64,000 bases of DNA from a virus (IMGVR_UViG_3300033068_000963:1-64000), one strand, 5' to 3'. Counted from the first letter of the stretch, positions 1 through 52,069 are shown. Notes: generated by a model not told the origin, from the letters alone. Translations and numbers: made by a program.

Positions 1-76
1 ACCACTTCCAGGGTCAGGAAGCCGACCTTGACGGAAGCGCCGGGGGTCCAGTCTTGCTTGGTGCGGGTGATCATGG
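1..76. repeat. Exact direct repeat, copy 1 (5' part of a small minus-strand gene, ATG at 74)
   Basis: Identical to 51994-52069; the copies diverge 2 nt upstream of the ATG. Confidence 0.97.
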
Positions 77-94
77 TGGCGTCTCCGGTTGCTC

Positions 95-180
95 TGATAA
101 CGAATATCCGTTACCCTGCTCGGAGTGTCAATAACGAATATACGAAAAGAGCGCGCCTTGACGGAAATTCAGATATCCGC
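95..180. promoter_or_regulatory. Divergent promoter region with repeated ATAACGAATAT (candidate RHH operator)
   Basis: Minus strand TTGACA-17-GATATT; ataacgaatat at about 97 and 131; plus-strand TTGACG at 158. Confidence 0.55.
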
Positions 181-193
181 AACAAGCCCGCGC

Positions 194-361
194 ATGGGGC
201 GTCCGAAACTCTGGGGAAAGCCTGTGCTCGTGAAGCTTCCCGAGGGGATGCCTGCCGAGATCGACAAGACGCTGGCTCCGGGCGAGGCGCGCACCGACTT
301 CATCCGCGCCGCCATCGAGGCCGAACTTAAGCGCCGCGAGAAGGCCAAGCCCAAGGGTTAG
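194..361 (+). CDS. Ribbon-helix-helix (CopG/Arc-like) DNA-binding protein
   Basis: MGRPKL..VLVKLPEGM..EID....RTDFIRAAIEAEL RHH pattern. Confidence 0.75.
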   Translation: MGRPKLWGKPVLVKLPEGMPAEIDKTLAPGEARTDFIRAAIEAELKRREKAKPKG

Positions 362-442
362 CCCGAAAGCTTGCGATTCCAGGGGGATCGGGTATGGTGG
401 GGACCTTCCTAGGGCTCCTGCCGATCACCGACTTCCGAACCG

Positions 443-473
443 AGCCCGCCGCCCACCAAAGCGGCGGGTTTCG
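443..473 (+). terminator. Intrinsic terminator
   Basis: cccgccgc/gcggcggg stem followed by tttc. Confidence 0.6.
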
Positions 474-498
474 TGTATCTGGCTCTCAGCCGGACAAG

Positions 499-530
499 CA
501 AAAGGCCCCGCACGTAAGCCGGGGCCTTTG
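499..530. terminator. Bidirectional intrinsic terminator
   Basis: aaaaggccccg..cggggcctttg. Confidence 0.7.
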
Positions 531-899
531 AAGGTGCTTCACTGGGGGAGCGGGCTTTAGCCGCCGGGGTGCATGGCGTCCTCCTGGGTCCGTCACAGGT
601 GGCTTGTGGGCCGATCTGGAACCCGAAACCTACGCCCACCCGCGCGGTCGTCAAGTCTTCTGGATCTCAATTTAGGACGACTTCAAGGACGCGGCCTCTA
701 GGACCTTCGCGAAATCCCTACCACACAAGGGATTGAGGCGGTTCCAACGGCTCCCGGAGCATCCCCCGAACCCGCGTCGCTCCCTGTGCATGGATGGCGC
801 AGAAACCCTTGCGCGCAAGGCCCTGACGAGGCGAGGGTGTCTCAGGCCGGTGCACCTCCAACCCAGGAAGCGCAGCCCGCTTTGAGGGTAATTTCAAGG
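531..899. other. Candidate attP region
   Basis: Non-coding stretch upstream of a P4-type integrase, with inverted repeats (aatccct..agggatt, ccttgcgcgcaagg) and GGTGCACCTCCA at 849-860. Confidence 0.4.
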
Positions 900-2162
900 A
901 TGGCGCGACGCCAGGCCAACCGACTGACCCACCGCGAGGTGCAGACGATCAAGGAGGCTGGCCGCCACGCCGATGGCCTGGGCCTCTACCTGCAAGTCGA
1001 TCCGAGCGACGTTCAGGAGGGCAAGCCGGACAAGGTCGGGGCGAAACGCTGGGTCTTCGTCTTCCAATGGCAGGGCAAGCGCAAGGAGATGGGCCTAGGG
1101 TCGGTGGAGTTCATCGACGTGAAGGTCGCCCGTGATCTGAGGGACGCGGCCCGCAAGCTGGTCTCCGAGGGCAAGAACCCGATCGAGGAACGGCGCCGGG
1201 AGCGGGAGGCGACGCCACCGCCGGCCGTCCCGCTGTTCGGGGTCTTCGCCAAGGAGATCGTGGCGGGCCTGCCGCTCAAGAACGCCAAGCACCGCGACCA
1301 GTGGGAGAAGACCCTCACCACCTACCAGCCGAACCTCCAGGCCCTGCCGGTGGACCAGATCACCACCCAGGATGTGCTTACCGCCCTGCGACCCCATTGG
1401 AAGCGCATCCATGAGACGGCGGAACGCATCAGGGGCCGCACAGAGCGGGTTCTGGACGCCGCCAGGGCCGCCGGGCATATCTCGGGGCCTTGGGAGAACC
1501 CCGCCCGCTGGAAGGGCCACCTGGCGCTCCTGTTGCCCCGCCCGGACGTGCAGGTCCGCCACCACCCCGCGCTCCCCTATGCCGAGATGGCCGACTTCAT
1601 GGCGAAGATCAGGGCCAGGCCATCGGTGAGCGCGCGGGCGCTGGAGTTCGCGATCCTCACCGCAGCGCGGACATCGGAGGTCCGGTTCGCGACATGGGGC
1701 GAGGTCGAGGGCGATGTCTGGACGGTTCCGGCTGAGCGGATGAAGGCCGGGCGGACGCACCGGGTCCCGCTGACCCAGGCCGTGCTCGACATCCTCGACG
1801 GACTGCGGCCGCCGCCAGAGGTCGAGATCAAGGGGCCGGGCTACATTTTCCCCGGATGGAAGGCGGGCGAGCCGCTGTCGAACATGTCGATGGACAAGAT
1901 CCTGCGCCTGGAGAAATCCGAGGCGACAGTACATGGCATGAGATCGACGTTCAGAGACTGGGCGGGCGACTGCACCAACTTCGCGGACGGGACCATCGAG
2001 GCGGCCCTGGCGCACCAAGTCGGGGACGAGACGGAGCGGGCCTATCGCCGCGGCGACGCGCTGTTGAAGCGGCGCAAGCTGATGGAGGCCTGGGCGGGGT
2101 TCTGCGCGGGTCGGACGGGGAAGGTCATCCCCATGTCCGGCTCACGCCGCGATGCGTCCTGA
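900..2162 (+). CDS. int: P4-family tyrosine integrase with arm-binding domain
   Basis: DGLGLYL N-terminus; catalytic R (TAARTSE), HGMRSTFRDW, LAH and AY motifs. Confidence 0.95.
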   Translation: MARRQANRLTHREVQTIKEAGRHADGLGLYLQVDPSDVQEGKPDKVGAKRWVFVFQWQGKRKEMGLGSVEFIDVKVARDLRDAARKLVSEGKNPIEERRREREATPPPAVPLFGVFAKEIVAGLPLKNAKHRDQWEKTLTTYQPNLQALPVDQITTQDVLTALRPHWKRIHETAERIRGRTERVLDAARAAGHISGPWENPARWKGHLALLLPRPDVQVRHHPALPYAEMADFMAKIRARPSVSARALEFAILTAARTSEVRFATWGEVEGDVWTVPAERMKAGRTHRVPLTQAVLDILDGLRPPPEVEIKGPGYIFPGWKAGEPLSNMSMDKILRLEKSEATVHGMRSTFRDWAGDCTNFADGTIEAALAHQVGDETERAYRRGDALLKRRKLMEAWAGFCAGRTGKVIPMSGSRRDAS

Positions 2163-2327
2163 CGCCTTGTCCAGCGCCTGGCGCAGCACGTCGGCGCGGA
2201 TCAGCGACCGGCCCGCCCAGGTGAACTTCTCCAACTGGCCGGCGCGGATCAGCCGATAGACCTGCGCCCGACTGACGCCGATGGCTGAGGCGGCTTCCTC
2301 GATGGTGAAGGAGAGCTTCTCGGTCAT
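2142..2327 (-). CDS. xis: Excisionase (HTH_17/AlpA-like)
   Basis: FTIEEAASAIGVSRAQVYRLI; convergent with int. Confidence 0.85.
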   Translation of the reverse strand: MTEKLSFTIEEAASAIGVSRAQVYRLIRAGQLEKFTWAGRSLIRADVLRQALDKASGRIAA

Positions 2328-2557
2328 GTCGTCTCTCCCCCTTGTCGATGGGAGGGGGTGTTTTCATCAGGAAGCGCCGTGCAGGTCCAAGACGTGCTGG
2401 TGTAGACTTCGACATTGAAGGTCTTCCCGCAGCCGTCGCACTCCATGTCGGTGAAGTTCATCTCGTCGTAATAGTGGGGCTCGTCGGCGGTGTACTGGCG
2501 GGCGCAGTAGGGACATTTCGGCCCCTCGTGTTCGTAGGTTTCGGCCAACTCGCTCAT
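2324..2557 (-). CDS. Small zinc-ribbon protein
   Basis: CPYC and CDGC; coupled to xis. Confidence 0.7.
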   Translation of the reverse strand: MSELAETYEHEGPKCPYCARQYTADEPHYYDEMNFTDMECDGCGKTFNVEVYTSTSWTCTALPDENTPSHRQGGETT

Positions 2558-2678
2558 GTCCCTTCCCCTCCCTGATCATCAGTAGGGATGGAGTTTGAAG
2601 GAATATGGCCGCACGAGCTGGCCTTAGTGGCGCGGGACCCTGCCCCCGCCACCCGAGAGGCGTTGCGATCTGGAGGGG

Positions 2679-3449
2679 TCATGGCTTCACCGTTCCGTCC
2701 TTGTTGTAGAACGGGCACGGCCCCAAACCGCAGCGAGCACAGGTCCGGGGATACGCGTTACCGTCGCGCCTTAAGACGTGCGTGCAGTTGACCAGGCCGG
2801 GAGGCTCGCGCTTTCCAGTATCCGAGGGGTTGGCCGGGATTATGCGGTAGGCGATGATGTCGTAGGCGTAGTCATTTATGGGCGCGTGGACCCACCCGAG
2901 ATTTTCAGAGGGAGCCCGCCCCCGACGCCCGCCCCGAAGCTCATAGTCCACCACCTTCCCCGGCGCTGGGTTCTCTCCTCCGTTCCATTGGATGAAGGGG
3001 GGAGTTGAAGGATTATGGCGGCCCGATCCAGTCGTGCCTGGCTCGACTTGCGAGCCATCGGCAGGCGAAGTGACCTCTTGCCCGGTGGAGAGGGCCTTCC
3101 GCATCGCGGGGTGGTCGAGATAGGTCCCGAACACGTCGTCCAGATACTTCGGATAGCAGGGGATTTCCCGGTCTGACAGTTCGCCCGCTACGGCGAGACG
3201 GACATCATCGTCGCTGGCGATGCTCATCAGACGGGCGGCGAGTGACAGCCCAGGAGCGGAGACCGGGGAGGCGAGACCCTCCAAGTGGCTGATCAGGTCC
3301 GTGGCCGCATACATCATCTTCTCGCCAAGCTTCATGGTCGCGATGATGTCGGTGCAAGGGTCCATGCTCCATTGGCTGACAGCCGCGTCCCACGCCTTCG
3401 TCAGCCTCCCCGTCTCTTCGGGTGGGTTAGAGGTCATTGGAGCGACCAC
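2679..3449 (-). CDS. Mosaic hypothetical protein with Cys-rich C-terminus
   Basis: Long ORF in the early-left operon; CARCGLGPC. Confidence 0.6.
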   Translation of the reverse strand: MVAPMTSNPPEETGRLTKAWDAAVSQWSMDPCTDIIATMKLGEKMMYAATDLISHLEGLASPVSAPGLSLAARLMSIASDDDVRLAVAGELSDREIPCYPKYLDDVFGTYLDHPAMRKALSTGQEVTSPADGSQVEPGTTGSGRHNPSTPPFIQWNGGENPAPGKVVDYELRGGRRGRAPSENLGWVHAPINDYAYDIIAYRIIPANPSDTGKREPPGLVNCTHVLRRDGNAYPRTCARCGLGPCPFYNKDGTVKP

Positions 3450-3619
3450 AGCGTTTCGCCGGTCACCGCGTCGGTGATCTTCAGCGTGCCAGGGTTGAGC
3501 GCGGCGTGCTCTCCAAGCAGTTCCCGCGTGTCATCCGCATAGACCATGATCGGGTAGAACATCTCCTTGCGGTGGAAGATTACGGGGCGGGTCGGCATGT
3601 CGGTTCTGCGCGCGGTCAT
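3434..3619 (-). CDS. Hypothetical protein
   Basis: GGAG RBS; operon context. Confidence 0.55.
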   Translation of the reverse strand: MTARRTDMPTRPVIFHRKEMFYPIMVYADDTRELLGEHAALNPGTLKITDAVTGETLWSLQ

Positions 3620-3664
3620 GTCAGATGTCTCCGTGTTCAAGGGCGTCGCGGGCGATGTTTTCCA

Positions 3665-3973
3665 TCATTCATCTCCACTAGAGGGGGAGGCATCCAGCAA
3701 GCCGGGGTGCGCCGGGTCATTCCAGATGCGGGATGCGCGGGGCGGGTCTCGGAGCCACCGGGCTTCGTCTCGGGCGTTTGCCGCTCGCCGCATTGCGGGA
3801 GTTTTGAAGCCGCAATGAAACTGATGGTTATCGCTCGCAGATGCGATGAAGCCGGTCACGTTCGACTTCCCAGCCCTGGCCGGATCGCTGGACCGGCTGC
3901 GTCCCTTGGTGTCCCACTGGCGCCCGCAATGCGCGCAGATGAACCGATAGGGGCTGCTCGTGCGGCCCATCAC
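3665..3973 (-). CDS. Hypothetical protein (CAHC motif)
   Basis: Stop/start overlap with the upstream gene. Confidence 0.55.
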   Translation of the reverse strand: MMGRTSSPYRFICAHCGRQWDTKGRSRSSDPARAGKSNVTGFIASASDNHQFHCGFKTPAMRRAANARDEARWLRDPPRASRIWNDPAHPGLLDASPSSGDE

Positions 3974-4302
3974 GCATCACCTTCAGCAGGTTTGGGGGAG
4001 GCATCCGATAGGCTGGCGGTGAAGGTGAGAGCGGCCTTCTCCATCTTCGTCTGAACGTCAGGATCTAGTTCGCTCCAGGGCACGACTTTGGAGCCCGGTT
4101 CGGCAGCGGCGACGGCATCGAACAGCCTCTCCCCCAGGCTCTTTGATCCGTCATATCCAGACGGTTGGGCTTCGGAGCGGGCGGCGTCGAGGATCGCGCG
4201 GGCGACGCGTTGGTGCAGATGGTTCCGCCCGGCCCCGATCATGCCCCGACCGCCGTCGTGGATCGCTTTCAGCGCGAGCGTTTCAGCTTCCTCATAGGTC
4301 AT
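3970..4302 (-). CDS. Hypothetical protein
   Basis: Coupled ORF beginning MTYEEAE. Confidence 0.55.
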   Translation of the reverse strand: MTYEEAETLALKAIHDGGRGMIGAGRNHLHQRVARAILDAARSEAQPSGYDGSKSLGERLFDAVAAAEPGSKVVPWSELDPDVQTKMEKAALTFTASLSDASPKPAEGDA

Positions 4303-5080
4303 GGTCAGCGTCCTTGTTCTGGGAGGCGAGGAGAAGGGGTTCGTCCGTTGCCGAGAGTGCTGCCTCGCTGCGCTGCGGCCCCGAGAGGTCGGTTTCTGCT
4401 GGAGGGGCGGCCCTGACGATAGGGACCAGCGTGAAGCCCTCCCGCCGATCAATCACCGTCCGGCCTAGGGGTTGGTTCGCCGCCTCGCAGTTCGGACAGC
4501 CGCCAGGATAGCTGCCGTTGCCCATCAGGGTGCGCATGGGGCGCATTTCCCCCTCGTGGCCCTCCCAGCCGCAGGCCTTACAAACCTTGTTGTCGTATCG
4601 CCTCCATTTGTGCGGAGCCGCATCCCAATGGGCAGGAAACTCCGCTTCAAGCGGGGCGAGGAGCGGCAGGAGGACAGGCTCAACGCGCGGGCGGCAGGTC
4701 TCGCAGAATCCCACGCCGATGTGGTTCTGTACGGTGACGAAGCCCTGGTTTAGGTCGAATGCCGCGAAGGTCTTCGGCGCGCTGTAGTTCGGCGCTCCCT
4801 TGCGGTGATACTTGCCCGCTCGGGGATAAACGAAATAGCCGTCCTTGCGACCGCAGCACGGGCAAGATGAGACGCGAGTGCGGCTCAGGGTCAAACGTCC
4901 CTTCTCGCGCGCTGTCGCCACAATCGTCGCCACCATCGCGGCTTCCTTTTCGGAGAGCCCCGACAACGACAGAGCAAGCGTATCCTTGGCCCGGTCCACG
5001 ACGGCCTGCGCCTCCGCGCTCACGAGCCCGTCAAGGTGCGCGGCTTCCGAAGCCGTTAGTTTGAGGGTGAACTCGCCCAT
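4292..5080 (-). CDS. Multi-CxxC zinc-binding protein
   Basis: CPCC, CETC, CKAC and CPNC. Confidence 0.65.
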   Translation of the reverse strand: MGEFTLKLTASEAAHLDGLVSAEAQAVVDRAKDTLALSLSGLSEKEAAMVATIVATAREKGRLTLSRTRVSSCPCCGRKDGYFVYPRAGKYHRKGAPNYSAPKTFAAFDLNQGFVTVQNHIGVGFCETCRPRVEPVLLPLLAPLEAEFPAHWDAAPHKWRRYDNKVCKACGWEGHEGEMRPMRTLMGNGSYPGGCPNCEAANQPLGRTVIDRREGFTLVPIVRAAPPAETDLSGPQRSEAALSATDEPLLLASQNKDADHDL

Positions 5081-5233
5081 CAGCCCCGCCCTCCATCGGA
5101 GTGCTGCGGCAAAGTCAGGACGGGGTTGGGGCCCCGTTCCGCGCAAGGCTGGGAGCGGGAGGCCAAGTCATTGTTTTCACGCATTACTCTTGCTCCAGGG
5201 CCTTAACCCTATCTGCGGCTTGTTCTGTAGGGG

Positions 5234-5398
5234 TCATGAAAGCCCCCAGAAAATGGTGAAAAGGCTCATGATGGAGAGCAGCGCCAACGCCAACTTCAGG
5301 CTGATGTTGAGCAAGGTGTCCGACTTCCACATTGCGAACAGGAGCCCGGCAAGAGCTGCGGCGACATAAGGCTGCGATGCGATGATGAGGTCTTTCAT
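5234..5398 (-). CDS. Small membrane protein (54 aa, not in the ORF track)
   Basis: MKDLIIASQPYVAAALAGLLFAMW..LALALLSIMSLFTIFWGLS; ATGA overlaps at both ends. Confidence 0.6.
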   Translation of the reverse strand: MKDLIIASQPYVAAALAGLLFAMWKSDTLLNISLKLALALLSIMSLFTIFWGLS

Positions 5399-5610
5399 TG
5401 GTCACCTGTCGGATTGAGGTAGGCCCTGCCGGCCGGAAGGATCTGGAAGCCGGGGTTAAGGCCCAGGCGGCGAGGAACGATCAGCCCGTCGTCGATCAGC
5501 CCTTGAAGGTGGGGCAGGGCCTTCTCGTAGTCCTCGGGGCTGTAGCCGCAGCGGCCCTTGGTGCGGGCGGCGAGTTCGGAGAGGAAGGCGCGTTCGGTTG
5601 GCGTTCTCAT
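5395..5610 (-). CDS. Winged-helix-like hypothetical protein
   Basis: L..LIDDGLI......FQILPAGR pattern. Confidence 0.55.
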   Translation of the reverse strand: MRTPTERAFLSELAARTKGRCGYSPEDYEKALPHLQGLIDDGLIVPRRLGLNPGFQILPAGRAYLNPTGDQ

Positions 5611-6731: not shown

Positions 6732-7435
6732 CAGCCCTGCTCCCGGCTCGCTAGGGCCTTGCGGCGCCCGCGGAACGCTGCGTTGAGGCTATTGGCGAGG
6801 CCGGGCGACGCCTCATGCAGCCGCCCGAAGGACTCAGCCATGCCGGGCCCGTTCGTGTGGGCATCGATCTCCGCGACACTGCGGAAGGTTTCCAGCAGGC
6901 GGTTCTGCTCCGAAGCCCAGACCGCCGGATCGTAGTCGTCGGCCTTAACGCGATCGCCAGGGAAGCCGCCATCGTCCACGTCGTGCTGCTCAACCTCTTC
7001 GCGCGGCGGGGAGCGTCGGGCTTGGTCAAGCGGCTCGACCGGCGCGCGGAGCGCCTTCACGGTATAGGCCTGTTTCTGTCCGCGCTTGACGGCGAGCGGC
7101 CACGTCGTGTCGCGCGGGATGTGGCTCATGTGCGAGATGCGGATCCCGCCCACCTTGATCCCGCCGAACTGAACGCCCTCGTCGCGGAAAAGCGTCATCC
7201 GCTTTCCGATGTAGTCCTTGCCCTCGGGCCCCCACGCAAAGACCAGAACCCGGCGCATTGATTTGCAGGGCTTGTAGGGCTTGCGGTCATCGCCTTCGAA
7301 GTGGACCGCGATGGGCTGCTCGCCCTCATCGCAACCGCGCACGTCGGTAATAGTGATGGTGATCGAGCCGCCGATCAGGTCGTCGGAATTTAGCTGGTCG
7401 GACTTAGCGATGATGGTTTTGGAGAGGTTGGTCAT
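6731..7435 (-). CDS. Probable recombination partner (ssDNA-binding/annealing) of the exonuclease
   Basis: SDQLNSDDL motif; coupled to YqaJ; function inferred from synteny. Confidence 0.55.
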   Translation of the reverse strand: MTNLSKTIIAKSDQLNSDDLIGGSITITITDVRGCDEGEQPIAVHFEGDDRKPYKPCKSMRRVLVFAWGPEGKDYIGKRMTLFRDEGVQFGGIKVGGIRISHMSHIPRDTTWPLAVKRGQKQAYTVKALRAPVEPLDQARRSPPREEVEQHDVDDGGFPGDRVKADDYDPAVWASEQNRLLETFRSVAEIDAHTNGPGMAESFGRLHEASPGLANSLNAAFRGRRKALASREQG

Positions 7436-8112
7436 ATCTGAATTTCATCCCGTTCAGGGCGGCGTTCCGTGGAGCGGAAGCCGTTCTTCATGAGTTGGTC
7501 GTGGTAGGCGGCCGTCACCTCGACCACGCGGGCCTCGAAGGCGGCGGCGGCGGTAAGGATGGCGTCTTGGATTTCGGGGATCGGCTCGGCGCGGATCACG
7601 GCCATCGGGAGGCCTGCGCTATAGGACAGGAAGTCCCACCACTTGCGCTCAGTCACGAGAAGGCAGGTTTGCACCTGAATGACGTGTTCGACCGGGATGA
7701 CGCCCTTGGCGATGGTCTCGATCTGGAAACGCTGGCGCCGGGACTTGGACTCGATCCCGCCGTCTTCCCCGACCAGGCCGTCCGGTGAGCAGCCGAGCGT
7801 AAAGCCCCAGCGGTCGTTGGTGATGAAGCCGACCTGTTCGACCTCTGCGTAGTGCCGGCTGTAGAGGTCGCGGGCGTCGAACTCGTCTTCATGGCCGCGC
7901 AACATCTCGTCGCCGAGGTAGGTGGCCTCGATGTGGCCGGAGATCCGTTGCGCCGCGAGCTCGTAGACGTGCGCGCGCTCCTTGTCGTTGCTGGCGGCCT
8001 TGGCCGTCGGCGTGACGATCTTCGACATTTCCGACGCCGTCAGCAGACCCAGGCGGGCCGCGAACCATTGCTCGGTGCCTTGGACGAGATCGTGGTGGAT
8101 GGTGATCGCCAT
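7432..8112 (-). CDS. YqaJ/lambda-type exonuclease
   Basis: QGTEQWFAARLG.LTAS, CSPDGLV, ESK and QVQ motifs. Confidence 0.9.
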   Translation of the reverse strand: MAITIHHDLVQGTEQWFAARLGLLTASEMSKIVTPTAKAASNDKERAHVYELAAQRISGHIEATYLGDEMLRGHEDEFDARDLYSRHYAEVEQVGFITNDRWGFTLGCSPDGLVGEDGGIESKSRRQRFQIETIAKGVIPVEHVIQVQTCLLVTERKWWDFLSYSAGLPMAVIRAEPIPEIQDAILTAAAAFEARVVEVTAAYHDQLMKNGFRSTERRPERDEIQI

Positions 8113-8390
8113 CAGGCCACCCGCGCCCCGATGGCCTGAGCCGTCGTCAGGTTCGTCTCGATGGTGTTGGAGAGCCTGAGGTAGACGTCGCGCTGGCCCG
8201 CCGGCAGCGAGGTCAGTTCGGCGGCCTCGGCCAGGCGCCCGGCGATGTCGACAAGATCGGCGTGCAGGGTTGCGCGGGCCTCGAAGGCGACCTCGCGGGC
8301 CTCGGCTTCTAGACGGCGCACCCGGTCGCCGACGGTCTCGCGGCTGCGGAGCGTGTCGTCGGGGCGGATGGGGGTCACGGTCTGGGCCAT
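8112..8390 (-). CDS. Hypothetical protein
   Basis: GGAGG RBS; operon context. Confidence 0.65.
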   Translation of the reverse strand: MAQTVTPIRPDDTLRSRETVGDRVRRLEAEAREVAFEARATLHADLVDIAGRLAEAAELTSLPAGQRDVYLRLSNTIETNLTTAQAIGARVA

Positions 8391-8392
8391 GC

Positions 8393-12183: not shown

Positions 12184-12189
12184 CCTCCA

Positions 12190-27697: not shown

Positions 27698-27698
27698 C

Positions 27699-32143: not shown

Positions 32144-32223
32144 AGCGGACACCCCTCAACGCCCGTCGAGAGACGCGCCAATCCCAGCGCCCGGCCTAGG
32201 CCCGGCCCGAAGGACCCCTTCCT

Positions 32224-42696: not shown

Positions 42697-42699
42697 GGC

Positions 42700-44739
42700 A
42701 TGGGCACCTTCGCTGAGCTCGACAAGGCCAAGCCGGCTCCGAAGGCGGGCGGGACGTACGCCAAGCTGGACGCCGCCGGAAAGGCCAAGGTTTTCCAGCC
42801 GGTCGAGGACTACGCGGCGAGCGTCGGCGCGGCCTTCAAGGCGGCGGGCGACGAGGGCAAGAAGTTCTGGGACCGCAACAGTGTCGCCCGGCCCGCGCCT
42901 GCGAACCCTGTCGAGTTCGTCAAGCAAGGCGCCGGCGACCAGATGCAGTTGCTGAAGACCATCGGCGCTATGGCGAACGCGCCCCTGTCTCTGCTGACCG
43001 CGATTCCGGATGCACTGGTCGCGGCCCCGGCCGGCCGAGCGATCGCGCGCGGCGCGGAGGCGGCCGGCGTCGGCGCCTATGATGGAGGCGGCCTGGCAGT
43101 CGACGAAACGGGCGTCAGGCTGGCTCCGCTTCGGCGGATGTCGCCCCAAGAGTCGGAAGACGCCATGCGCGGCGCGATCAACAGCGCGATGATGGCGGCC
43201 AGCCCTGCGCGCGGGCTCCCCTTGAAGGCGCGCGTCATGGGCCCCGAGCGCCCGGCGCCTACCCTGCGCCCTGCGCGAACAGCGCCGGCTATCGAGGTTC
43301 AAGCGGGCGCCCCGATGCCGGATGTCGCTGCGGCTCCGACTCGCCCCTCGCTCAAGCCCGACAACGAAGCCCTGCGATACGTCGAGAAGGTGGTGAAGGC
43401 CGGCGCGCCCGATCTCGCGACCCTGAAGACGGCGCCTGATCTGATCACCGGCGCTGAGGCGGTCGGTCAGCCCGGCAAGGCAGCGCTCGCCAGTCTCAGC
43501 CGCCGGGAAGGCGCGACGGGCAATGCGTTGAATGCCGAGGTCTCCACCCGACAACTGGGTCGCCCAGCCCGCATACTTGACGCCTTCGCCGATGCCAGCG
43601 GCGTGGCGCCGGAAGCGGCCTCGGGCGACATCCAGGCTCTGGTGACCGCTGGCCGAGCCAAGGCCGCGCCCCTGTACGCCGAGGCCTATGCCAGCGGCCC
43701 GGTCGAGACCCCCGCCTTGCGCGGCCTGCTTCAGCGCCCCTCCGTCAAGAAGGCGATGGGCAACGCGCTCAAGATCGCCGCCGAGGAGGATCGCAACCCG
43801 GGAGATCTCGGATTCCAAGTCTCGCCAGCGTCGGGCGATATTCCCGAGATGATCACGGTCAAGAGCCCGACGGCCGAGACCTGGGACCTCGTGAAGCGCG
43901 GGCTGGATGATGTGCTCGAGACCTATCGCGACAAGACAACCGGCAAGCTTGTCCTCGATAATGAGGGCAGGGCGGTCCTGGGCACGCTGAAATCGCTGCG
44001 CCAGGAGCTTGTCGACGCCAACCCTGCCTACGGCAAGGCATTGGCCGCGAGTGGCGACTACCTTAGCGCCGACCAAGCCTTCCTGGGCGCTGGCAAGGAC
44101 ATCTTCAACGCCGGCCTCACGGAAAAGCAGTTCGCCGAGCGCATCGCCAAGATGAGCGCCAGCGATCTGCAGGCCTATCGCGGAGGCATCGCCAACCGCT
44201 TCTACGACCTGGCCCAGACCGGCCGCCTGGACCCGAAGGTGGTCAAGACGCCCCGGGTTCAAGCCAAGCTGCGGGCCGCGCTGGGCGACCAGGCCGCCGA
44301 CCAACTTCTCGCCGTCGCGGGCCGAGAGGGCGACATGCTGGCCTTTGAGCGCCGGTATGCGCCTGGCGCGGGCTCCATCACCGCCGAAATGCAGGCTGCG
44401 ATGGCGGAGCAGGACTCGGTCGGCCGCGGCGCCCAGATGGCTGGGGATTTCGCTGGCGGCATCGCTCAAGGCCGGGGCCCGGTTGGCGCCGCGACGGGGG
44501 CGATTGGCCGCCAACTTCAAGCGATCCTCGACGCAGTCGGCCCGACCCGAGGCATGTCGGTGGCGGCGCGAGATAAGGCTGGTGAGGCGCTGATGCTCCC
44601 GCCGGCAGAGCTCGCCAAGGCGATCGAGGCCTATCGGGCTAGTCGCGGCGTCGTCCTGCCAGGCGCTCCGCGAGCGCGTCAGCTTGCGCCTGCGGTATCC
44701 GGCGCTTCGACGTCAGCGCAGCCCAAACGAAAACCATAG
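42700..44739 (+). CDS. Large internal virion/ejection protein
   Basis: Ala-rich helical protein; AAPLY..AY; position. Confidence 0.7.
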   Translation: MGTFAELDKAKPAPKAGGTYAKLDAAGKAKVFQPVEDYAASVGAAFKAAGDEGKKFWDRNSVARPAPANPVEFVKQGAGDQMQLLKTIGAMANAPLSLLTAIPDALVAAPAGRAIARGAEAAGVGAYDGGGLAVDETGVRLAPLRRMSPQESEDAMRGAINSAMMAASPARGLPLKARVMGPERPAPTLRPARTAPAIEVQAGAPMPDVAAAPTRPSLKPDNEALRYVEKVVKAGAPDLATLKTAPDLITGAEAVGQPGKAALASLSRREGATGNALNAEVSTRQLGRPARILDAFADASGVAPEAASGDIQALVTAGRAKAAPLYAEAYASGPVETPALRGLLQRPSVKKAMGNALKIAAEEDRNPGDLGFQVSPASGDIPEMITVKSPTAETWDLVKRGLDDVLETYRDKTTGKLVLDNEGRAVLGTLKSLRQELVDANPAYGKALAASGDYLSADQAFLGAGKDIFNAGLTEKQFAERIAKMSASDLQAYRGGIANRFYDLAQTGRLDPKVVKTPRVQAKLRAALGDQAADQLLAVAGREGDMLAFERRYAPGAGSITAEMQAAMAEQDSVGRGAQMAGDFAGGIAQGRGPVGAATGAIGRQLQAILDAVGPTRGMSVAARDKAGEALMLPPAELAKAIEAYRASRGVVLPGAPRARQLAPAVSGASTSAQPKRKP

Positions 44740-44914
44740 GCCAATAGAGAAGGGCCGCGGAAACCGCGCCGATAGTGGTCGCCGGGTCCTGCGCCGACGC
44801 TGCGATCCAGATCGTCGTGCCGCCGAAGAGCGCGAACGCCAGGATGTGACCCCACGGAATACGCGCGCGGGGCTCAACCTCTTCGAACTCGGCGTCAATG
44901 ATCTCTTTGCTCAT
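44639..44914 (-). CDS. Two-TM membrane protein (moron)
   Basis: Two hydrophobic segments; antisense to the late operon. Confidence 0.65.
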   Translation of the reverse strand: MSKEIIDAEFEEVEPRARIPWGHILAFALFGGTTIWIAASAQDPATTIGAVSAALLYWPMVFVWAALTSKRRIPQAQADALAERLAGRRRD

Positions 44915-45225
44915 GGAGCGCAGAACGCCTTAACTTCGCGAGCGAGCGGCAGGTTAGAGCCTGAGAGCGCGACCCTCACCGCCTCGTCGCATTTGCCTTC
45001 GGCCAGCAAGCCCGTCACGACCTTCCGTAGGTCTCGATCAGCGACCGCCGCCCTGTGGTCGCTCGCTGAGCACCCGACCAGAAACCAGTCTTTGCCGAGG
45101 CAGGCGCCTGGCGCTGGCGAGGTCGATTCTCTGGTTTTGCAAGTCGTCGTCCCGATGACGTTCGTATCGCAAACCGTCGTCATATCGCCTGCGGCGAGCA
45201 GCATCACCAACGCGGTCGCGATCAT
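44911..45225 (-). CDS. Secreted Cys-rich protein (moron)
   Basis: Signal-like MIATALVMLLAA; six Cys; AAGGA immediately before the ATG. Confidence 0.6.
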   Translation of the reverse strand: MIATALVMLLAAGDMTTVCDTNVIGTTTCKTRESTSPAPGACLGKDWFLVGCSASDHRAAVADRDLRKVVTGLLAEGKCDEAVRVALSGSNLPLAREVKAFCAP

Positions 45226-45350
45226 CCTTCGTCCCCGGCTTCGGTTTGCTTCTGACCCATGCCGCCCAACATGCCACGGCCTAGCCCCGGCGTGAACCCA
45301 CCCAGCCCGCGCCGTCGAGAAGACGCCGCATTCCCTCGAAGGAGCGTCCC

Positions 45351-45578
45351 ATGGATGCGAGCCAAATCCCCACGAACGCCGTGATCGCCACGCCGAGCGA
45401 CACCGCGCCCCTCGCTGGCCTCGGCCTGATCTTTGCCGGCGGCCCGTGCGCGGTTGAGACCGACAAGGGCGACATCGTGATCCTGCCGGTCGACTTCGCC
45501 GGCATCGTGATCCCTCTCCAAATTCGGAGGGTCCGCGACACTGACACGACCGCCACCAGCATTCTGGTGTTCCGTTGA
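45351..45578 (+). CDS. Small tailspike-associated protein
   Basis: A..TPSD....G..IPLQIRRV..T.TTA; AAGGAG RBS. Confidence 0.7.
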   Translation: MDASQIPTNAVIATPSDTAPLAGLGLIFAGGPCAVETDKGDIVILPVDFAGIVIPLQIRRVRDTDTTATSILVFR

Positions 45579-47035
45579 GTCTAGGCCTCGCCCTCAAGTT
45601 CTCCGCTGCCCCCCTCCTCAAGGGTGTGGGGGGTGGCAGGGTCGAGCAACTGCGCGCCTTGATCCTGGCGGGCGGGGTGACGACCTTGCGCCCGATGGTG
45701 GCCATCGGAGACAGCCACACCGACGATACGACGGCGGCCCAATACCTCTGGGACGACCTGCAAGCGGCCTATAACAAACCCGGCGAGGGCCTGGAGGGTG
45801 TCGCCTCGGCGGCCATCGTGCCGAAGGGCAACAACGGCCAACTCCTCTCCAACTACCTGACCGGAGCGGGTCCCAACACCTTCGCCGCCGCCATGGCGCT
45901 GAACCCATCTGTGGTTGTCCCTTGCTGGCTGACCAACGACGTGCGGCTGGGCGGCCTGGGCCTGACTGTCGAGGCGGTCACGGCCAACGGCGCGGCGCTG
46001 CTGAACCAGCTTATCGCCGACATCAAGACCTCCGTCCCGGATGCGCTGATCGTTCTGCGCATCCCGGCGCCCTACCTGACCGTCAACACCGGCGGCCTCA
46101 ACTACATCCAGGACGGGTCGGGCAACATCAACCCGGCTGGCTTGGCCCAAATCTACACGACCGGCGTTCGCGCGGCCTACTACGCCGCTGCTGCTGGCAA
46201 GCGCAATGTGATGATCTACGACCCGCAATCGCGCCTGTTCGGGGTGACTTCCCCAGTGGCCGTCGGGACCAACTTCGCCGATCAGATCCACCAGAATCAG
46301 GTCGGCTACGAGGCCGAAGCGCAGGACTTCGCCAACTGGGTCGCGGCGGCGGTCCCGTACTCGCAAGCCCTGACAGACGCGGCCCTGATCTCCCAGCCCT
46401 ACACCCCCTGGCTCGCCTACAATCGCGCCGTGGAGGACACGAGCCGGTTCGTGCAGATTTCGTCGGCCTATGCCGTGACCATCACGGCGCCCAACACCTA
46501 CGCAGATTTCGGCCCCTCCGTGCCGGATGCAGACCCCACGCTGATCGCGCCCTATGACATCATGGAGCCGACAGCGTCACAGGTGAGCTTCCGTCTCCCC
46601 TCTGGGGCCGCAGCGAGCGCGTCGGCGGCGAACACGCGGGTTACGGGTTTGGCGGCCATCACGGCATCGGCTGTCGCCAAGACCCACACCAAAGTGTTCC
46701 GCCAGACGCGCTCTGGCGACGCGGCCCTGAACGCGGCGCTGGACGCAGCGCGCGCGGGCGGGACCTTCCTGAAGACGGGCCGGATCGGCGGCGGCAGCAC
46801 GAGCTTCATGGATATTGGAGCGTCCAGCCTCACGGCGATCAAGCCGACCGAGACCGCCGCAGCTTGGGTTCCGAACATGCTGGCGGGGGACAAGGTATAC
46901 GTGGAAGGGCGGGGCGGAACGCCGATCACCCTGACCAGCAACTTCGCCGCCTCGGGCTCCAACTGCCGCGTCACCGGACTGGCTGGCTTCGACTACTCCA
47001 CCATCGTGGGCCGCATCGCCATCGTGGTCCGTTAG
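45575..47035 (+). CDS. SGNH/GDSL hydrolase tailspike
   Basis: IGDSH, GNNG, LTND and DQIH catalytic blocks. Confidence 0.8.
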   Translation: MSLGLALKFSAAPLLKGVGGGRVEQLRALILAGGVTTLRPMVAIGDSHTDDTTAAQYLWDDLQAAYNKPGEGLEGVASAAIVPKGNNGQLLSNYLTGAGPNTFAAAMALNPSVVVPCWLTNDVRLGGLGLTVEAVTANGAALLNQLIADIKTSVPDALIVLRIPAPYLTVNTGGLNYIQDGSGNINPAGLAQIYTTGVRAAYYAAAAGKRNVMIYDPQSRLFGVTSPVAVGTNFADQIHQNQVGYEAEAQDFANWVAAAVPYSQALTDAALISQPYTPWLAYNRAVEDTSRFVQISSAYAVTITAPNTYADFGPSVPDADPTLIAPYDIMEPTASQVSFRLPSGAAASASAANTRVTGLAAITASAVAKTHTKVFRQTRSGDAALNAALDAARAGGTFLKTGRIGGGSTSFMDIGASSLTAIKPTETAAAWVPNMLAGDKVYVEGRGGTPITLTSNFAASGSNCRVTGLAGFDYSTIVGRIAIVVR

Positions 47036-47218
47036 ACCCCCACACCCTCACTCAATGTGGGGTCGAGCATAGTCCGCCCGACGGTGCTGTAACACCGCCG
47101 GGCGCGGCCTTCGGGCAGTGAGTCCCTAGACCGACCTCGCGCGAGGCGTCGGCCAGGGACCACGAAAGCTGAGCCATGAAAACCCCCATCAACAGCCGAG
47201 CGAAGTGAGACGCCCGAC

Positions 47219-47542
47219 ATGCTGAGCGAATATCTCCCCATCGGCCTTGCGGCGGTCGCCGCTATCGTCTGGCTCGTCCGGCTTGAGGGCCGCGTGAATG
47301 CTTCCGAGAAGGCCGGCTCCGCCATCGCCGCCACGGGGGAAAAGGCCGACGAAGCCCTGCGTCTCGACATCGTCGCGATCAAGGCCGCCCAGACCGCCCG
47401 CGAGGCCAAGCACGACCAGATGAACGAGAACCTGATCCGGGTGCAGGAGCAGCTCAAGCATCTGACGAGCCTCTTCGAGCGGCACTTCGTTGAGCCGCAG
47501 CCACCATCAAATCCCACCCGGCGCCGGACGCCGCAGTCGTGA
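47219..47542 (+). CDS. Membrane-anchored coiled-coil lysis-region protein
   Basis: N-terminal TM, then WLVRLEGRV. Confidence 0.65.
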   Translation: MLSEYLPIGLAAVAAIVWLVRLEGRVNASEKAGSAIAATGEKADEALRLDIVAIKAAQTAREAKHDQMNENLIRVQEQLKHLTSLFERHFVEPQPPSNPTRRRTPQS

Positions 47543-47727
47543 CCCTGGCCCCGGTCGAGATGAACTATCTCCCGGCGGTCTCCAAGCTCCTCCAGGCCCG
47601 TTACGAAGAGGCCCGCCGCCTCTGGGTCGCCGAACCCTCAAACGGCCTGCTACCCTATCCCAAGCGGCGCACGTCGAAGCGCAAGCCGATCCCCGCGACC
47701 CTGGACGCGCCAGAGGTCGAGGGATGA
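47539..47727 (+). CDS. Hypothetical protein
   Basis: Coupled at both ends. Confidence 0.5.
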   Translation: MTLAPVEMNYLPAVSKLLQARYEEARRLWVAEPSNGLLPYPKRRTSKRKPIPATLDAPEVEG

Positions 47728-48905
47728 GCGCGCCAACTCAGATCGACCCTGGCCTGCTGGACTTCGCCTCACCCGCCCAGCGCCGGTACTGCGAGGCCAT
47801 CAACCTGCATGGGTCGGCCCGCGCCGCCGCCCGCGCCCTTGGTGTGGCGCCCAACGCGGTGAGCGGGGCCATCGAACGGCTTCGCAGGCACGCCGCTGAT
47901 CGAGGCTACTCCCCAGACCACGACATGACCCGCACCGTTCCCGATGGGTTCAAGGTCCGGGGCGTCTCCACCTACTACGACAGCGAGGGCAAGGCGCGCG
48001 GCCAGTGGGTCAAGAGCGCAGCGGACGATGAGCGCCGGGCGGAAATGCTGCGCGCCGCGGTTGCCGCGATGGCGGAGGATCTGCCCCGCGTCGATCCGAT
48101 CGAGGCCCCGGCCTGGGCCATGGCGTCGCTCGCGAACCTCTACACCATCACCGACTATCACCTCGGAATGTACGCCTGGGCCAAGGAGAGCGGTTCGGCG
48201 TGGGACATCAAGATCGCCGAAAACACCATGCTCTCGGCCTTCACCCACATGGTGACGAGCGCGCCCAAGGCCCGCCTAGGCATCATCAACATCCAGGGCG
48301 ACTTCCTCCACACCGACGGCCCGACGCCCGTGACGCCGATGCACGGCCATGTCCTCGACGCCGCCGGTCGATACTCCGAAATGGTCGCCGCCGCCGTGCG
48401 GGTCCTGCGTCGGGTCATCGACCTGGCCCTGATGCGCCACGAAGCCGTCGAGCTTCTGATCTGCGAGGGCAATCACGATCTGTCGGGCTCGATGTGGCTG
48501 CGGCACATGTTCTCCGCGCTCTACGAGAACGAGCCCCGCCTGGCCGTGAACGACAGCGAGTTGCCGTTCTACGTGATCCAGCACGGCCAAACCATGCTGG
48601 CTTTCCACCACGGCCATCAGGTGAAGAACGAGGCGCTCCCCCTCCTGTTCGCCGCGCAGTTCCCGAAAATCTGGGGCGCGACCTCCAAGCGGTACGGGCA
48701 TTGCGGCCATCGCCACCACACCGACGAAAAAGAGCACGCGGGGATGAAGGTCATCCAGCACCCGACTCTGGCCGCGCGTGACGCCTACGCGGCGCGGGGC
48801 GGCTGGATCGCAGAACGCTCCGCCATCGCCATCACCTACCACGACCGCTTCGGGGCCGTTGGCCGCGTCGAGGTGACGCCGGAAATGCTGGAGGACGCCG
48901 CATGA
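47724..48905 (+). CDS. HTH-fused calcineurin-like metallophosphoesterase
   Basis: DYH, GDFLH, GNHD, HGH and GHRH; N-terminal SARAAARALGV. Confidence 0.85.
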   Translation: MSAPTQIDPGLLDFASPAQRRYCEAINLHGSARAAARALGVAPNAVSGAIERLRRHAADRGYSPDHDMTRTVPDGFKVRGVSTYYDSEGKARGQWVKSAADDERRAEMLRAAVAAMAEDLPRVDPIEAPAWAMASLANLYTITDYHLGMYAWAKESGSAWDIKIAENTMLSAFTHMVTSAPKARLGIINIQGDFLHTDGPTPVTPMHGHVLDAAGRYSEMVAAAVRVLRRVIDLALMRHEAVELLICEGNHDLSGSMWLRHMFSALYENEPRLAVNDSELPFYVIQHGQTMLAFHHGHQVKNEALPLLFAAQFPKIWGATSKRYGHCGHRHHTDEKEHAGMKVIQHPTLAARDAYAARGGWIAERSAIAITYHDRFGAVGRVEVTPEMLEDAA

Positions 48906-49165
48906 CCATCGACGAGTTCAAGAGCCTGATCGGCGACCTCTCCCGGCCCCTGTCGATCATCCTGGCCTCCGCGTCGGGCTCCGTCGCCACCATCGTCATC
49001 GCCTTCAAGGTGACGACGTTCGGGGAGGGCGCGCTGTTCATCGGCGCGGTCTGGACCGGCGTCGTCGGGCTCTACACCGCCAAGGCCTGGGAGGTGTCGC
49101 GCGCCGGGAAGCAGGCGGCGGACGTGGAGATCGCCAAGACCCAAACCCCAGGACCGGCGCAATGA
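48902..49165 (+). CDS. Holin-like protein
   Basis: Two TM segments, directly before the endolysin. Confidence 0.65.
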   Translation: MTIDEFKSLIGDLSRPLSIILASASGSVATIVIAFKVTTFGEGALFIGAVWTGVVGLYTAKAWEVSRAGKQAADVEIAKTQTPGPAQ

Positions 49166-49572
49166 CCTTCGCCCTCAGCAAGACCTCGCTCGCCCGCCTC
49201 GAGGGTGTGGATCCGCGCCTCGTCGCCATCGTCAAACGCGCGATCCAGATTTCGACGGTGGACTTCATGGTCGTGGAGGGCGTCCGCACCCTGGCCCGCC
49301 AAAAGCAACTCTATGCCCAAGGCCGCACCGTCCCAGGCAAGGTCGTAACGTGGACCCTCAAGTCCCGGCACATTGACGGGGAGGCGGTCGACCTGCTTCC
49401 CGCGCCCTACGACTGGAAGGACCCCAAGGGGTTCGATGCCGTGAACCGCGCCATGATGCAGGCGGCGGATGAGCTTGGCGTCGGCCTGCGCTGGGGGGCG
49501 GATTGGGATCGTGACGGCAAGCCCCGCGAGAAGGGCGAAGGCGACTCTCCGCATTGGGAGCTTGCGGCATGA
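49162..49572 (+). CDS. M15 (L-Ala-D-Glu) peptidase endolysin
   Basis: EGVRT..RQ..LYAQGR, SRH..G.AVD, RWG.DW and D.PHWEL. Confidence 0.92.
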   Translation: MTFALSKTSLARLEGVDPRLVAIVKRAIQISTVDFMVVEGVRTLARQKQLYAQGRTVPGKVVTWTLKSRHIDGEAVDLLPAPYDWKDPKGFDAVNRAMMQAADELGVGLRWGADWDRDGKPREKGEGDSPHWELAA

Positions 49573-49967
49573 TGATCGCCCTCAAGTTCTGGCGTGAAAT
49601 CCTGATCGCCGCCCTCGTCGCCTCCCTCGCCCTGGCCGGCGCTTTCATCAAGCACCAGGCCGGAAAGATCGGAGACCAGCGCGACGCCCTCACAACCGCC
49701 GCAGACGCCCTCAGGACGGCTGCTGACGCGATCCGCGACCGAGACGACGCCTTGAGCCTCAACGCCGCTCAGGAGGCCTCAGACGCCACCCAAACCGCAA
49801 CCTTCTACCGAGGAGCCGCACGCGATGCGTTCAACGCTGGTTATGCCTCTCGCCCTCGCTGTCCTGGCGAGCCCGCTCCTGTCGGGGTGCAGCCTGATCT
49901 CCGGGCGCTCTGGTCCGCAGGCGCCATCCCCGGTTCCGCTGGTCTGCCCGGCAAGCCTCGCGGCTGA
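49569..49967 (+). CDS. Inner-membrane spanin (Rz-like)
   Basis: N-terminal TM and coiled coil. Confidence 0.75.
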   Translation: MMIALKFWREILIAALVASLALAGAFIKHQAGKIGDQRDALTTAADALRTAADAIRDRDDALSLNAAQEASDATQTATFYRGAARDAFNAGYASRPRCPGEPAPVGVQPDLRALWSAGAIPGSAGLPGKPRG

Positions 49968-50136
49968 AATCCCCGCCGAGCCCCTGCCTCCCGAGGGTAT
50001 CGACCCCTCAACCCTCCCGCCCGCTCTGTCGGCGTTCCTGTGGGGCGAGTGGGTTCCGTGGTCCAGGGCCAACGCCCATCGGCTGGGGCAGGCTCAGAGA
50101 TGGTGCATCGGCAAGACGCATCCTCCTGACGGCTAG
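49825..50136 (+). CDS. Outer-membrane spanin lipoprotein (Rz1-like)
   Basis: LLSGC lipobox; Pro-rich; overlaps the i-spanin. Confidence 0.8.
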   Translation: MRSTLVMPLALAVLASPLLSGCSLISGRSGPQAPSPVPLVCPASLAAEIPAEPLPPEGIDPSTLPPALSAFLWGEWVPWSRANAHRLGQAQRWCIGKTHPPDG

Positions 50137-50231
50137 TGAAAGGCAGAGGGACGTTCCGCGTTCCACTGGCTTGCTAATGAAAGGCAGGCCTTCACCACCC
50201 CCAGCGTTGAGCCTTAGCGGCTCCGCTTGAT

Positions 50232-50264
50232 AGGCCCCTCGGTTCACGCCGGGGGGCCTTCTTC
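50232..50264 (+). terminator. Terminator ending the late operon
   Basis: aggcccctcgg..ccggggggcct followed by tcttc. Confidence 0.7.
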
Positions 50265-50517
50265 ATGTCTGGGCCAAGGCGGCGTCCAGCGCCGCGTCGA
50301 ACCCCATCCCGCCCGCGACAGAGCTCAAGACGGTGCAGACGATCTCAGGCGTGTATCCGTATAGGTCCCACGCCTTCTCAATCGCAATGAAGGCGTCCAG
50401 GGCGTCGGGGTTGCGCATGAGCGCGACGTAGGCCTTGAGGTCCGCGTCGGCCGCCCACATCTGAGCCTCCCAGCCGTCGTACTGGGCCTGCATCTTCATC
50501 TCCATGTCGCTGCTCAT
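50263..50517 (-). CDS. Hypothetical protein
   Basis: Coupled leftward operon. Confidence 0.6.
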   Translation of the reverse strand: MSSDMEMKMQAQYDGWEAQMWAADADLKAYVALMRNPDALDAFIAIEKAWDLYGYTPEIVCTVLSSVAGGMGFDAALDAALAQT

Positions 50518-50705
50518 TCCGGCTGTCCCTGTTGCCATTGGCCCTCCGCTCGACACCACGAGTCGGCGCATTCCTGACAGAGGTTCTCGCCGTCCAGATT
50601 GGTGACGCGAGCGCGGTCATCGTGGTTGACGCAGCCCGGCGGCATGACTTCGTGCTCGTCATCCAGAAAGGCGTTCAGGATGGGGATGTGGAGATCGCCG
50701 GTCAT
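50514..50705 (-). CDS. Small Cys/His protein
   Basis: CVNH....LCQEC. Confidence 0.6.
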   Translation of the reverse strand: MTGDLHIPILNAFLDDEHEVMPPGCVNHDDRARVTNLDGENLCQECADSWCRAEGQWQQGQPE

Positions 50706-50977
50706 TTCAGGCCATCCACCATCGCGATTGCGCTGTCCGCCCCGCGCCAAGCTTCGATGCTGTCGGCGTCCTGATCGTCGTCTTCCCAGTTCGAGGGCCG
50801 GGCGTGGTCAACGAGATCGCAGATCACCTCATGCAGAGCGGCGCGCTCCAAGAGGGCGGCTGTCAGCGCCTCCCCGGCCCGCTTGTTGTAGTCGCGGAGA
50901 TCCATTGCGCCCTCGGTTGCCGACCGGCGCCAGAGAGCGATCTTGTCCTGCAACAGGGTGAACTGATCGCGGGTCAA
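50702..50977 (-). CDS. Hypothetical protein
   Basis: Coupled ORF. Confidence 0.55.
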   Translation of the reverse strand: MTRDQFTLLQDKIALWRRSATEGAMDLRDYNKRAGEALTAALLERAALHEVICDLVDHARPSNWEDDDQDADSIEAWRGADSAIAMVDGLK

Positions 50978-51213
50978 AGGTCCGCCTCCAACAGTTCGGC
51001 GCACCGCTCAAGGCAGAAGCGCAGGTCCGGCCCCATCATGCCCGGAAGGTCGGAAAGCTCAGCGGTCTCCGACCAATACCGCGCCATGGACGCCACAGAG
51101 GCGCGAGAGGCGTCGTCGCGCTTGGTTCGGCAATGACCTACGCAATAGCGGCTGTCGGCGCACAGGCGGCGCATTTCGCAGCCGTCACCGGTCTTGAAGG
51201 GTTCGCTGCTCAT
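50974..51213 (-). CDS. Cys-rich hypothetical protein
   Basis: Coupled ORF. Confidence 0.55.
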   Translation of the reverse strand: MSSEPFKTGDGCEMRRLCADSRYCVGHCRTKRDDASRASVASMARYWSETAELSDLPGMMGPDLRFCLERCAELLEADL

Positions 51214-51548
51214 GGGAAGCGGGCTCCAACTTTCTGAAGGTACGCGACGACGGCCTTTGCGCCGTCCCGCGAGGTCCAGTCCATATCCATGCTGTCGCTG
51301 ATAGCGTCAGCGATGTCGTCTTCGAGGTCGCCCCAGTCGACTCCCTCGTAGACCCACGCGTGCTCAGTGATCTTGAGCGACCAGAGCGGACCGCGAAGGC
51401 TCAGCCGGAAGGCGTCGGCCGCCGTGCGGTTTTCCCATTTCAGCGCCTCGTTCGGGTCGCTGGTGAACGTGCCGTGCGCGGCGTTTTCCAGCCATCGGCC
51501 CTCGTCGTTTTCCAGGAACCACCACGTCTTCGGGTCAGTAGTCGTCAC
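51210..51548 (-). CDS. Hypothetical protein
   Basis: FTSDPNEALKW..R..A; ITEHAW. Confidence 0.6.
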   Translation of the reverse strand: MTTTDPKTWWFLENDEGRWLENAAHGTFTSDPNEALKWENRTAADAFRLSLRGPLWSLKITEHAWVYEGVDWGDLEDDIADAISDSMDMDWTSRDGAKAVVAYLQKVGARFP

Positions 51549-51876
51549 GGTCGTCGCTCCCGGCCCATTCCATCTGATGATCGCGGTCGCTCGCCTCCGA
51601 CAGCATGGCTTCCGTGTGGTTCTGAGCGATGGCCTGAAGGATCGCCGCTTCGTCGCGCTGATCGAACGGGCCTCCGACGCCATCGACGGAAAGCAGCTTC
51701 AGGTCCTCGACCTCATCAGGGGCGCCGGGGTCGTAGCCCTCTGGCGGGCCGTAGTTGCCGGTTTCGGGTGAGCCCCAGGCGACGGTGAAGGAGACCTCCA
51801 CCTCGACCTCATCGGCCTCGGGAATGTCCCCGGTGCTGTAGGGCAGGGTGCAGGCGTAGGTGTAGCGGGTCGCCAT
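51535..51876 (-). CDS. Acidic hypothetical protein
   Basis: YGPPE.YDP..PDEVE. Confidence 0.65.
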   Translation of the reverse strand: MATRYTYACTLPYSTGDIPEADEVEVEVSFTVAWGSPETGNYGPPEGYDPGAPDEVEDLKLLSVDGVGGPFDQRDEAAILQAIAQNHTEAMLSEASDRDHQMEWAGSDDRDDY

Positions 51877-52067
51877 CACTCCCACCCCGCGCTCAGGCCG
51901 TGGTGGGGCGTGAAGGTGTACTTCTTGCCGTTGGTGGGGTTCCAGAGGCGGTAGTCGTCGGGACGGTAGTCGCCGGGGGTGGGGATGCACTCGACCACTT
52001 CCAGGGTCAGGAAGCCGACCTTGACGGAAGCGCCGGGGGTCCAGTCTTGCTTGGTGCGGGTGATCAT
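51876..52067 (-). CDS. Small protein; its 5' end is the repeat shared with the window start
   Basis: MITRTKQDWTPGASVKVGFL..Y.FTPHHGL; GGAG RBS. Confidence 0.8.
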   Translation of the reverse strand: MITRTKQDWTPGASVKVGFLTLEVVECIPTPGDYRPDDYRLWNPTNGKKYTFTPHHGLSAGWE

Positions 52068-52069
52068 GG
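51994..52069. repeat. Exact direct repeat, copy 2
   Basis: Identical to 1-76. Confidence 0.97.

Follow-up and report, generated by a model that had tools for sequence, protein, structure and literature searches.

A 96,174-base viral record that very probably combines two separate temperate phage genomes at a small shared gene

Gene content and control regions of the two halves

The window analysed here is a stretch of 64,000 nucleotides, bases 1-64000 of an IMG/VR virus record that is 96,174 bases long and is labelled there as 'linear' and 100% complete. From its first to its last base, the record consists of the last 76 nt of a 198-nt stretch that we call S, a first part (77-51871), the full S (51872-52069), a second part (52070-96097) and the first 77 nt of S. 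Bases 1-51993 are referred to below as phage 1 and bases 52070-96174 as phage 2, and positions beyond 64000 are those of the whole record. Genes were called on the basis of GC3, with family searches in addition. Each half comprises its own repressor, terminase, portal, head protein, ejection transglycosylase, endolysin and integrase.

In phage 1, the integrase that the first-pass annotation had placed at 786-2162 (plus strand) is confirmed as a tyrosine integrase by Pfam (Arm-DNA-bind_3, Phage_int_M and Phage_integrase). It is followed by a RecE-like exonuclease (7432-8436) and a cI-like repressor (11494-12240, minus strand; PHROG 4 and PHROG 6201). The packaging and head genes occupy 25970-33426 on the plus strand (PHROG 2, 156, 3927 and 283) and encode, in this order, the large terminase (25970-27697), the portal (28761-31007), a scaffold protein (31052-32143) and a major head protein of the P22 type (32224-33426). 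An endolysin stands at the end of the late genes (49162-49572, plus strand; PHROG 465, E 9e-50), and a DnaB-type helicase and an injection transglycosylase are present as well. The closest relative of the portal (87% amino acid identity) is found on a record of 50,990 bases with a completeness rating of 100%; for phage 1 by itself, a similar length of 51,993 bp is predicted.

Phage 2 begins with a repressor of the HTH type (130 aa; 52146-52538, minus strand). The first-pass annotation had described this repressor together with two flanking 16-nt boxes, and both are borne out, the protein matching PHROG 2328 with an E value of 6e-8. On the plus strand follow the large terminase, in two frames (59253-59960 and 60017-60808), and the portal (60808-62898), which together match PHROG 2, 5653 and 1216. 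The second half further encodes a major head protein unlike that of phage 1, ejection proteins, an endolysin, an integrase (84717-85961) and a recombinase (91631-92422). Both halves show the hallmarks of temperate tailed phages with lambda-like immunity: a repressor flanked by operators, a tyrosine integrase and a complete virion module. Phage 1 has a G+C content of 67.1%, phage 2 one of 63.5%. The tetranucleotide profiles of the two halves differ only slightly, an observation that we do not count as evidence.

The integrases of the two phages are related, the gene of phage 1 being 77% identical at the nucleotide level to the integrase region of phage 2 (84467-85945). Upstream of the phage 1 gene lies a 53-nt patch (438-490, plus strand) that is 98% identical to 84316-84368, upstream of the phage 2 integrase. 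This patch contains a G+C hairpin followed by T's, and could be either terminator-like or part of attP; the supposed attP region gave no tRNA-like match and no Rfam match. As had been noted earlier, host DNA is not visible; neither tRNA nor host-like stretches were seen. Moreover, the integrase-proximal regions of both phages are uninterrupted, which indicates that neither genome is in an integrated state in the assembly.

The two halves meet at the S gene (51876-52067, minus strand), which encodes a 63-aa protein (P0001). At the very start of the record, bases 1-76 hold the first 24 codons of this gene, with the ATG at 72-74 on the minus strand, and the region upstream of it is that of phage 1 (77-193, minus strand). 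A promoter-like site runs here from 131 to 103 on the minus strand, and there are two TAACGAATAT boxes, at 98-107 and 132-141; this box occurs only twice in the whole window, against 0 expected. Divergent from S is a small gene of 55 aa (194-361, plus strand), previously annotated as 'RHH'. It has a weak match to PHROG 4738, 'transcriptional repressor' (E 6.6e-4), while the longer frame 125-361 has no Pfam match and the RHH-like gene no convincing PDB match; the product is possibly a ribbon-helix-helix protein or another repressor.

In phage 2, the sequence before S is different. A leftward promoter-like site (52118 to 52090, minus strand) overlaps an operator-like 16-nt box (52104-52119, inverted repeat I6), which is one of the two inverted copies of GTTGACGTGATTGGGT on either side of the repressor gene; the second is at 52519-52534. 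When phage 2 is closed through S, an intact S gene comes to lie directly downstream of its own repressor/operator region, and the minus-strand genes of 85958-96174 are set behind that region. The earlier statement that one gene appears under two control systems is thus correct, a different promoter/operator set preceding S in each phage. Most probably, these two regions belong to two separate phages rather than to two copies of the gene within one molecule.

Exact repeats S and T and the ends of the record

The first-pass annotation had made its proposal of a k=77 overlap depend on the window beginning at a contig end, and this is the case, the first base of the window being base 1 of the 96,174-base record. 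The repeat that it reported, 1-76 being equal to 51994-52069, is exact, and the identity ends at base 77. The figure of 76 nt is, however, only the part of the shared stretch visible at that end: the true shared stretch is the 198 nt of S, and the far end of the contig lies in it as well. Indeed, when the whole record is compared with itself, its tail (96098-96174, 77 nt) proves to be exactly 51872-51948. Both ends of the contig are therefore inside one internal stretch, and they coincide to the base with its boundaries, the contig opening with the final 76 nt of S and closing with its initial 77 nt. Contig ends thus fall at exact-repeat borders, with overlaps of about k to an internal sequence. 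Such ends are characteristic of an assembler path through a de Bruijn graph at k of about 77; the overlaps, at 76 and 77 nt, deviate by one base from a single k at one end, a point against this reading.

S is exact in both phages, and it is here that the assembly crosses from phage 1 to phage 2. It comprises the complete 63-aa gene and the initial codons of the gene that follows, whose ATG overlaps. On its left, identity between the phages is about 80% (51703-51948 against 95935-96174), and on its right the homology stops about 10 nt beyond the start codon. As 198 consecutive matches do not arise by chance at a background identity of 80%, S is a recently exchanged patch.

A second exact repeat, T, had been missed. 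It spans 227 nt (5199-5425), is repeated exactly at 90459-90685 in phage 2, beyond the window, and contains a gene for a 54-aa hydrophobic protein (5234-5398, minus strand). Exact repeats other than S and T do not exceed 56 nt anywhere in the record. T is a patch of a kind similar to S. The presence of two perfectly identical small genes in both phages reflects a recent mosaic exchange that is real but ordinary, as is the position of the S gene behind a different control region in each phage.

The S protein has no match in Pfam, PHROG or the PDB, and its 57 relatives are all unnamed. Its only match in a bacterial genome is in one Phenylobacterium MAG (L010), which suggests a host within the Caulobacteraceae; this family probably provides the host of both phages. 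The relatives in IMG/VR (L003-L007) and in the Phenylobacterium MAG have little in common beyond the gene itself. Two of them (L004 and L005) show a phage-2-like order on one side only, with S, a methylase homologue and a homologue of 57276-57803, and a record with a portal like that of phage 2 (G004) carries, close to one of its ends, a homologue of S with 64% identity, whose flanks are not recognisable. No close relative of the junction region was present in the phage collection searched. Exact 30-nt patterns for the S-phage 2 and S-phage 1 junctions retrieved nothing else in IMG/VR, and a 68-nt core of S had no match in the JGI metagenome contigs. Neither collection yielded an independent assembly of one of the phages by itself, which counts against the scheme proposed below.

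These elements can be assembled into a simple scheme. Two distinct temperate phages would have been present together in one sample. Phage 1 would be a putative circle of 51,993 bp (1-51993), and the closing of 52070-96174 through S would yield a putative circle of about 44,226 bp for phage 2. At k of about 77, the de Bruijn graph would merge the two circles at S and at T. The assembler would then have emitted a single path through a1 (77-5198), T, a2 (5426-51871), S, b1 (52070-90458), T and b2 (90686-96097), a behaviour we presume from the fact that this path takes every unique edge once. The path would halt at its re-entry into S, leaving 76 and 77 nt of S at the contig ends. Closed through the repeat, each part has the gene set of a self-sufficient genome, and the S gene is intact in both closures.

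Four resolutions of the graph are possible. Two of them are pairs of circles, with lengths of 51,993 and about 44,226 bp or of about 10.8 and 85 kb, and the other two are single circles of 96 kb. One of the latter would correspond to a true co-integrate, in which homologous recombination through S, independent of the integrase, would have produced a 96-kb circle or a tandem double genome that the record reports faithfully. A circle a1 T a2 S b1 T b2 S formally fits both the graph and the contig, perfect identities of 198 and 227 nt would be enough for RecA or for phage recombinases, and both phages carry recombination genes. Furthermore, the perfect identity of S and T implies that the two lineages recombined at some time. 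On the other hand, there is no reason for a real molecule to have both contig ends exactly at the repeat, and 96 kb is about twice the expected packaging of either head type, as extrapolated from relatives of 40-51 kb.

Another arrangement to be weighed is that of tandem prophages, where a double lysogeny in a host chromosome would have been extracted from the assembly as one viral region. The 77% identity of the integrases and the common 53-nt upstream patch mean that both phages may use the same attachment site. Yet the junction lies inside the 63-aa S gene and not at an att site, with neither a hybrid att junction nor flanks of host DNA, and host genes or tRNA are absent at either end and between the genomes. 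In addition, both int-proximal regions are uninterrupted, the record ends in S, and the depth changes at the junction as described below. We consider this arrangement very improbable.

Read depth across the junction

The first-pass annotation had proposed to compare read depth on either side of 52070. This was done in X23, the one public run with the sequence, in which a fraction of 0.98 of the sampled words of 47001-57000 is present. Logan contigs of this run were placed on 42001-62000, and depths were taken from matches free of differences; the values are contig k-mer depths from a single run, and the record may have been assembled from this sample or from another. On the phage 1 side (42001-51727), the exact contigs have depths of 55.8, 55.3 and 52x, and on the phage 2 side (54739-62000) of 230.7, 214.5 and 265.4x. 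The depth thus rises 4-5-fold, from 52-56x to 214-265x, with the step at S. Three other runs, X24, X1 and X2, the last two being wastewater metagenomes, contain for the most part diverged fragments, the majority 90-99% alike, and say nothing on linkage.

One contig of X23 reaches the junction itself. Contig 18 (1135 nt, depth 214.5) matches 50514-50704 with 24 differences, continues with 390 other letters, then matches 51853-52069 with 3 differences and stops at 52069. The mismatches within 51853-52069 lie only to the left of 51872, so that the phage 2 copy of S in this contig is identical over all 198 nt (51872-52069). Phage 2's own end (95498-95688 and 96079-96097) shows exactly the same 390-nt gap and the same 3 differences. 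Since contig 18 equals the end of phage 2, b2 runs into S at the depth of phage 2.

With b1 and b2 at about 215-265x and a2 at about 55x, the only resolution that fits is the pair of circles S-a1-T-a2 and S-b1-T-b2, with lengths of 51,993 and about 44,226 bp. Both single-circle solutions need equal depths and do not fit X23. The other pair of circles, a small S-a1-T-b2 (about 10.8 kb) and a large S-b1-T-a2 (about 85 kb), is permitted by the graph, S and T both being exact repeats longer than k. It would, though, require b1 to have the depth of a2, against the 214-265x and 52-56x measured, and b2, at 214.5x, is like b1. Moreover, virion genes would be missing from the small circle and present in two full sets on the large one. 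This pair is extremely improbable.

The same depths bear on the co-integrate, whose partners should be equal in copy number and differ 4-5-fold in X23. At 52-56x against 214-265x, at least about three quarters of the phage 2 copies cannot be joined to phage 1, and the excess flow through S then requires the closure b2-S-b1. The earlier proposal that phage 1 recombined into phage 2 is therefore not supported as the main form, and the coverage step speaks against it under the refuting condition that the first-pass annotation itself had named. We find a faithfully reported co-integrate unlikely; it could be at most a minority form, and not the main form in X23. It is likewise quite unlikely that a fraction of the population is a real 96-kb double genome, generated by recombination at S or T between co-replicating phages and persisting as a replicative or prophage form. 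If such a double genome existed, the path of the assembler would reflect real linking reads, and the phage 1 genes downstream of S would be placed under the repressor-controlled leftward promoter of phage 2.

Four things are observed directly: how the repeats are placed, the step in depth, the doubled sets of genes and the difference between the control regions. We conclude that the record is very probably an assembly chimera of two separate temperate phage genomes, and not a biological co-integrate. The alternative already raised by the first-pass annotation, that an assembler with k=77 walked a circle and left it via a shared repeat, is supported by the start of the contig, by the end overlaps of 76 and 77 nt and by the depth step in X23.

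Consequences and comparison with known systems

The value of this result lies mainly in curation, as a public record rated 100% complete would stand for two genomes. Statistics on size, gene content, host range or 'jumbo-ish phage' drawn from such records would be wrong, and findings that treat both halves of the record as one genome need to be read again. The biology that is left is that of co-occurring temperate phages, probably of Caulobacteraceae, that recently swapped two small genes.

Contigs of IMG/VR more than twice the expected length have been described in the CheckV paper as probable assembly artefacts and were detected by k-mer frequency (PMC8116208). As in those concatenated contigs, the record studied here has about twice the expected length, is explained by an assembler walk through a repeat, and has ends set by graph nodes. 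The cases of CheckV (PMC8116208) contain the same genome repeated, with a k-mer frequency above 1, whereas here two different genomes are joined and the k-mer frequency is near 1. Since the halves differ, a check for concatemers by k-mer frequency would not fire, and the record is rated 100% complete.

Phage co-integrates and tandem lysogens also place related genomes head to tail between direct copies of a shared sequence, as is seen here. Unlike them, the record has unequal depths on its two sides, contains no att hybrids or host flanks, and ends in the repeat.

Mosaic exchange of modules is known in lambdoid and P22-like temperate phages. The two phages resemble them in their genome maps, with integrase, early-left operon, repressor, early-right genes and late genes, and in their patches of perfect identity (198 nt for S and 227 nt for T), which have abrupt borders at gene boundaries and are surrounded by DNA with 77-87% identity or no relationship. 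Compared with such mosaicism nothing is unusual here, the shared genes being small and without known function. Most likely, the join is not a real feature, and what remains is the ordinary mosaicism of two temperate phages.

Sequences common to the two phages

Besides S, the 198-nt exact stretch that carries the S gene, phage 1 (record bases 1-51993) and phage 2 (52070-96174, closed through S) share a second exact repeat, T, of 227 nt, located at window positions 5199-5425 and record positions 90459-90685. T encodes a hydrophobic protein of 54 aa with a two-helix-like character, whose gene is identical in both phages and has a lower G+C content. The left border of the repeat is abrupt and mosaic, while on the right the two phages continue at about 87% identity. 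Comparison of the int/early-left regions of phage 1 and phage 2 also revealed many exact patches of 31-56 nt each (for example window 2947-3002, 2311-2356 and 704-747, with partners at record 84.5-91.2 kb), and the DNA around these patches is either 77% identical or unrelated.

Each phage further contains an N6/N4 DNA methylase gene (window 18010-18786 and 53232-53906), the two copies showing about 76% identity across 180 nt, and phages that infect Rhizobium, Sinorhizobium, Burkholderia and cyanobacteria carry relatives.

Exonuclease and terminase genes

In phage 1, an SbcD-type 'DNA repair exonuclease' of 471 aa (window 47490-48905; PHROG 704, E 3e-119) is encoded after the tail genes and directly before the lysis genes, an unusual position for such a gene. 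The large terminase of phage 2 (window 59253-60808) is split over two frames, comprising an ATPase part (59253-59960) and a nuclease part (60017-60808), both of which have matches among the terminase PHROGs.

Relatives in other genomes

The sole relative of the 63-aa S protein in a bacterial genome is found on a Phenylobacterium MAG contig (L010:1263-1451, 84% aa identity). It probably sits in a prophage, since a portal-like gene lies 9 kb away, and hints at a Caulobacteraceae host. Among viral records, G001 (L011), an IMG/VR record of 50,990 bases, lacks the S gene; its early genes differ from those of phage 1, and its virion module is close to that of phage 1, with a portal 87% identical at the aa level. 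G001 is an example of module shuffling within the group of phages to which phage 1 belongs.
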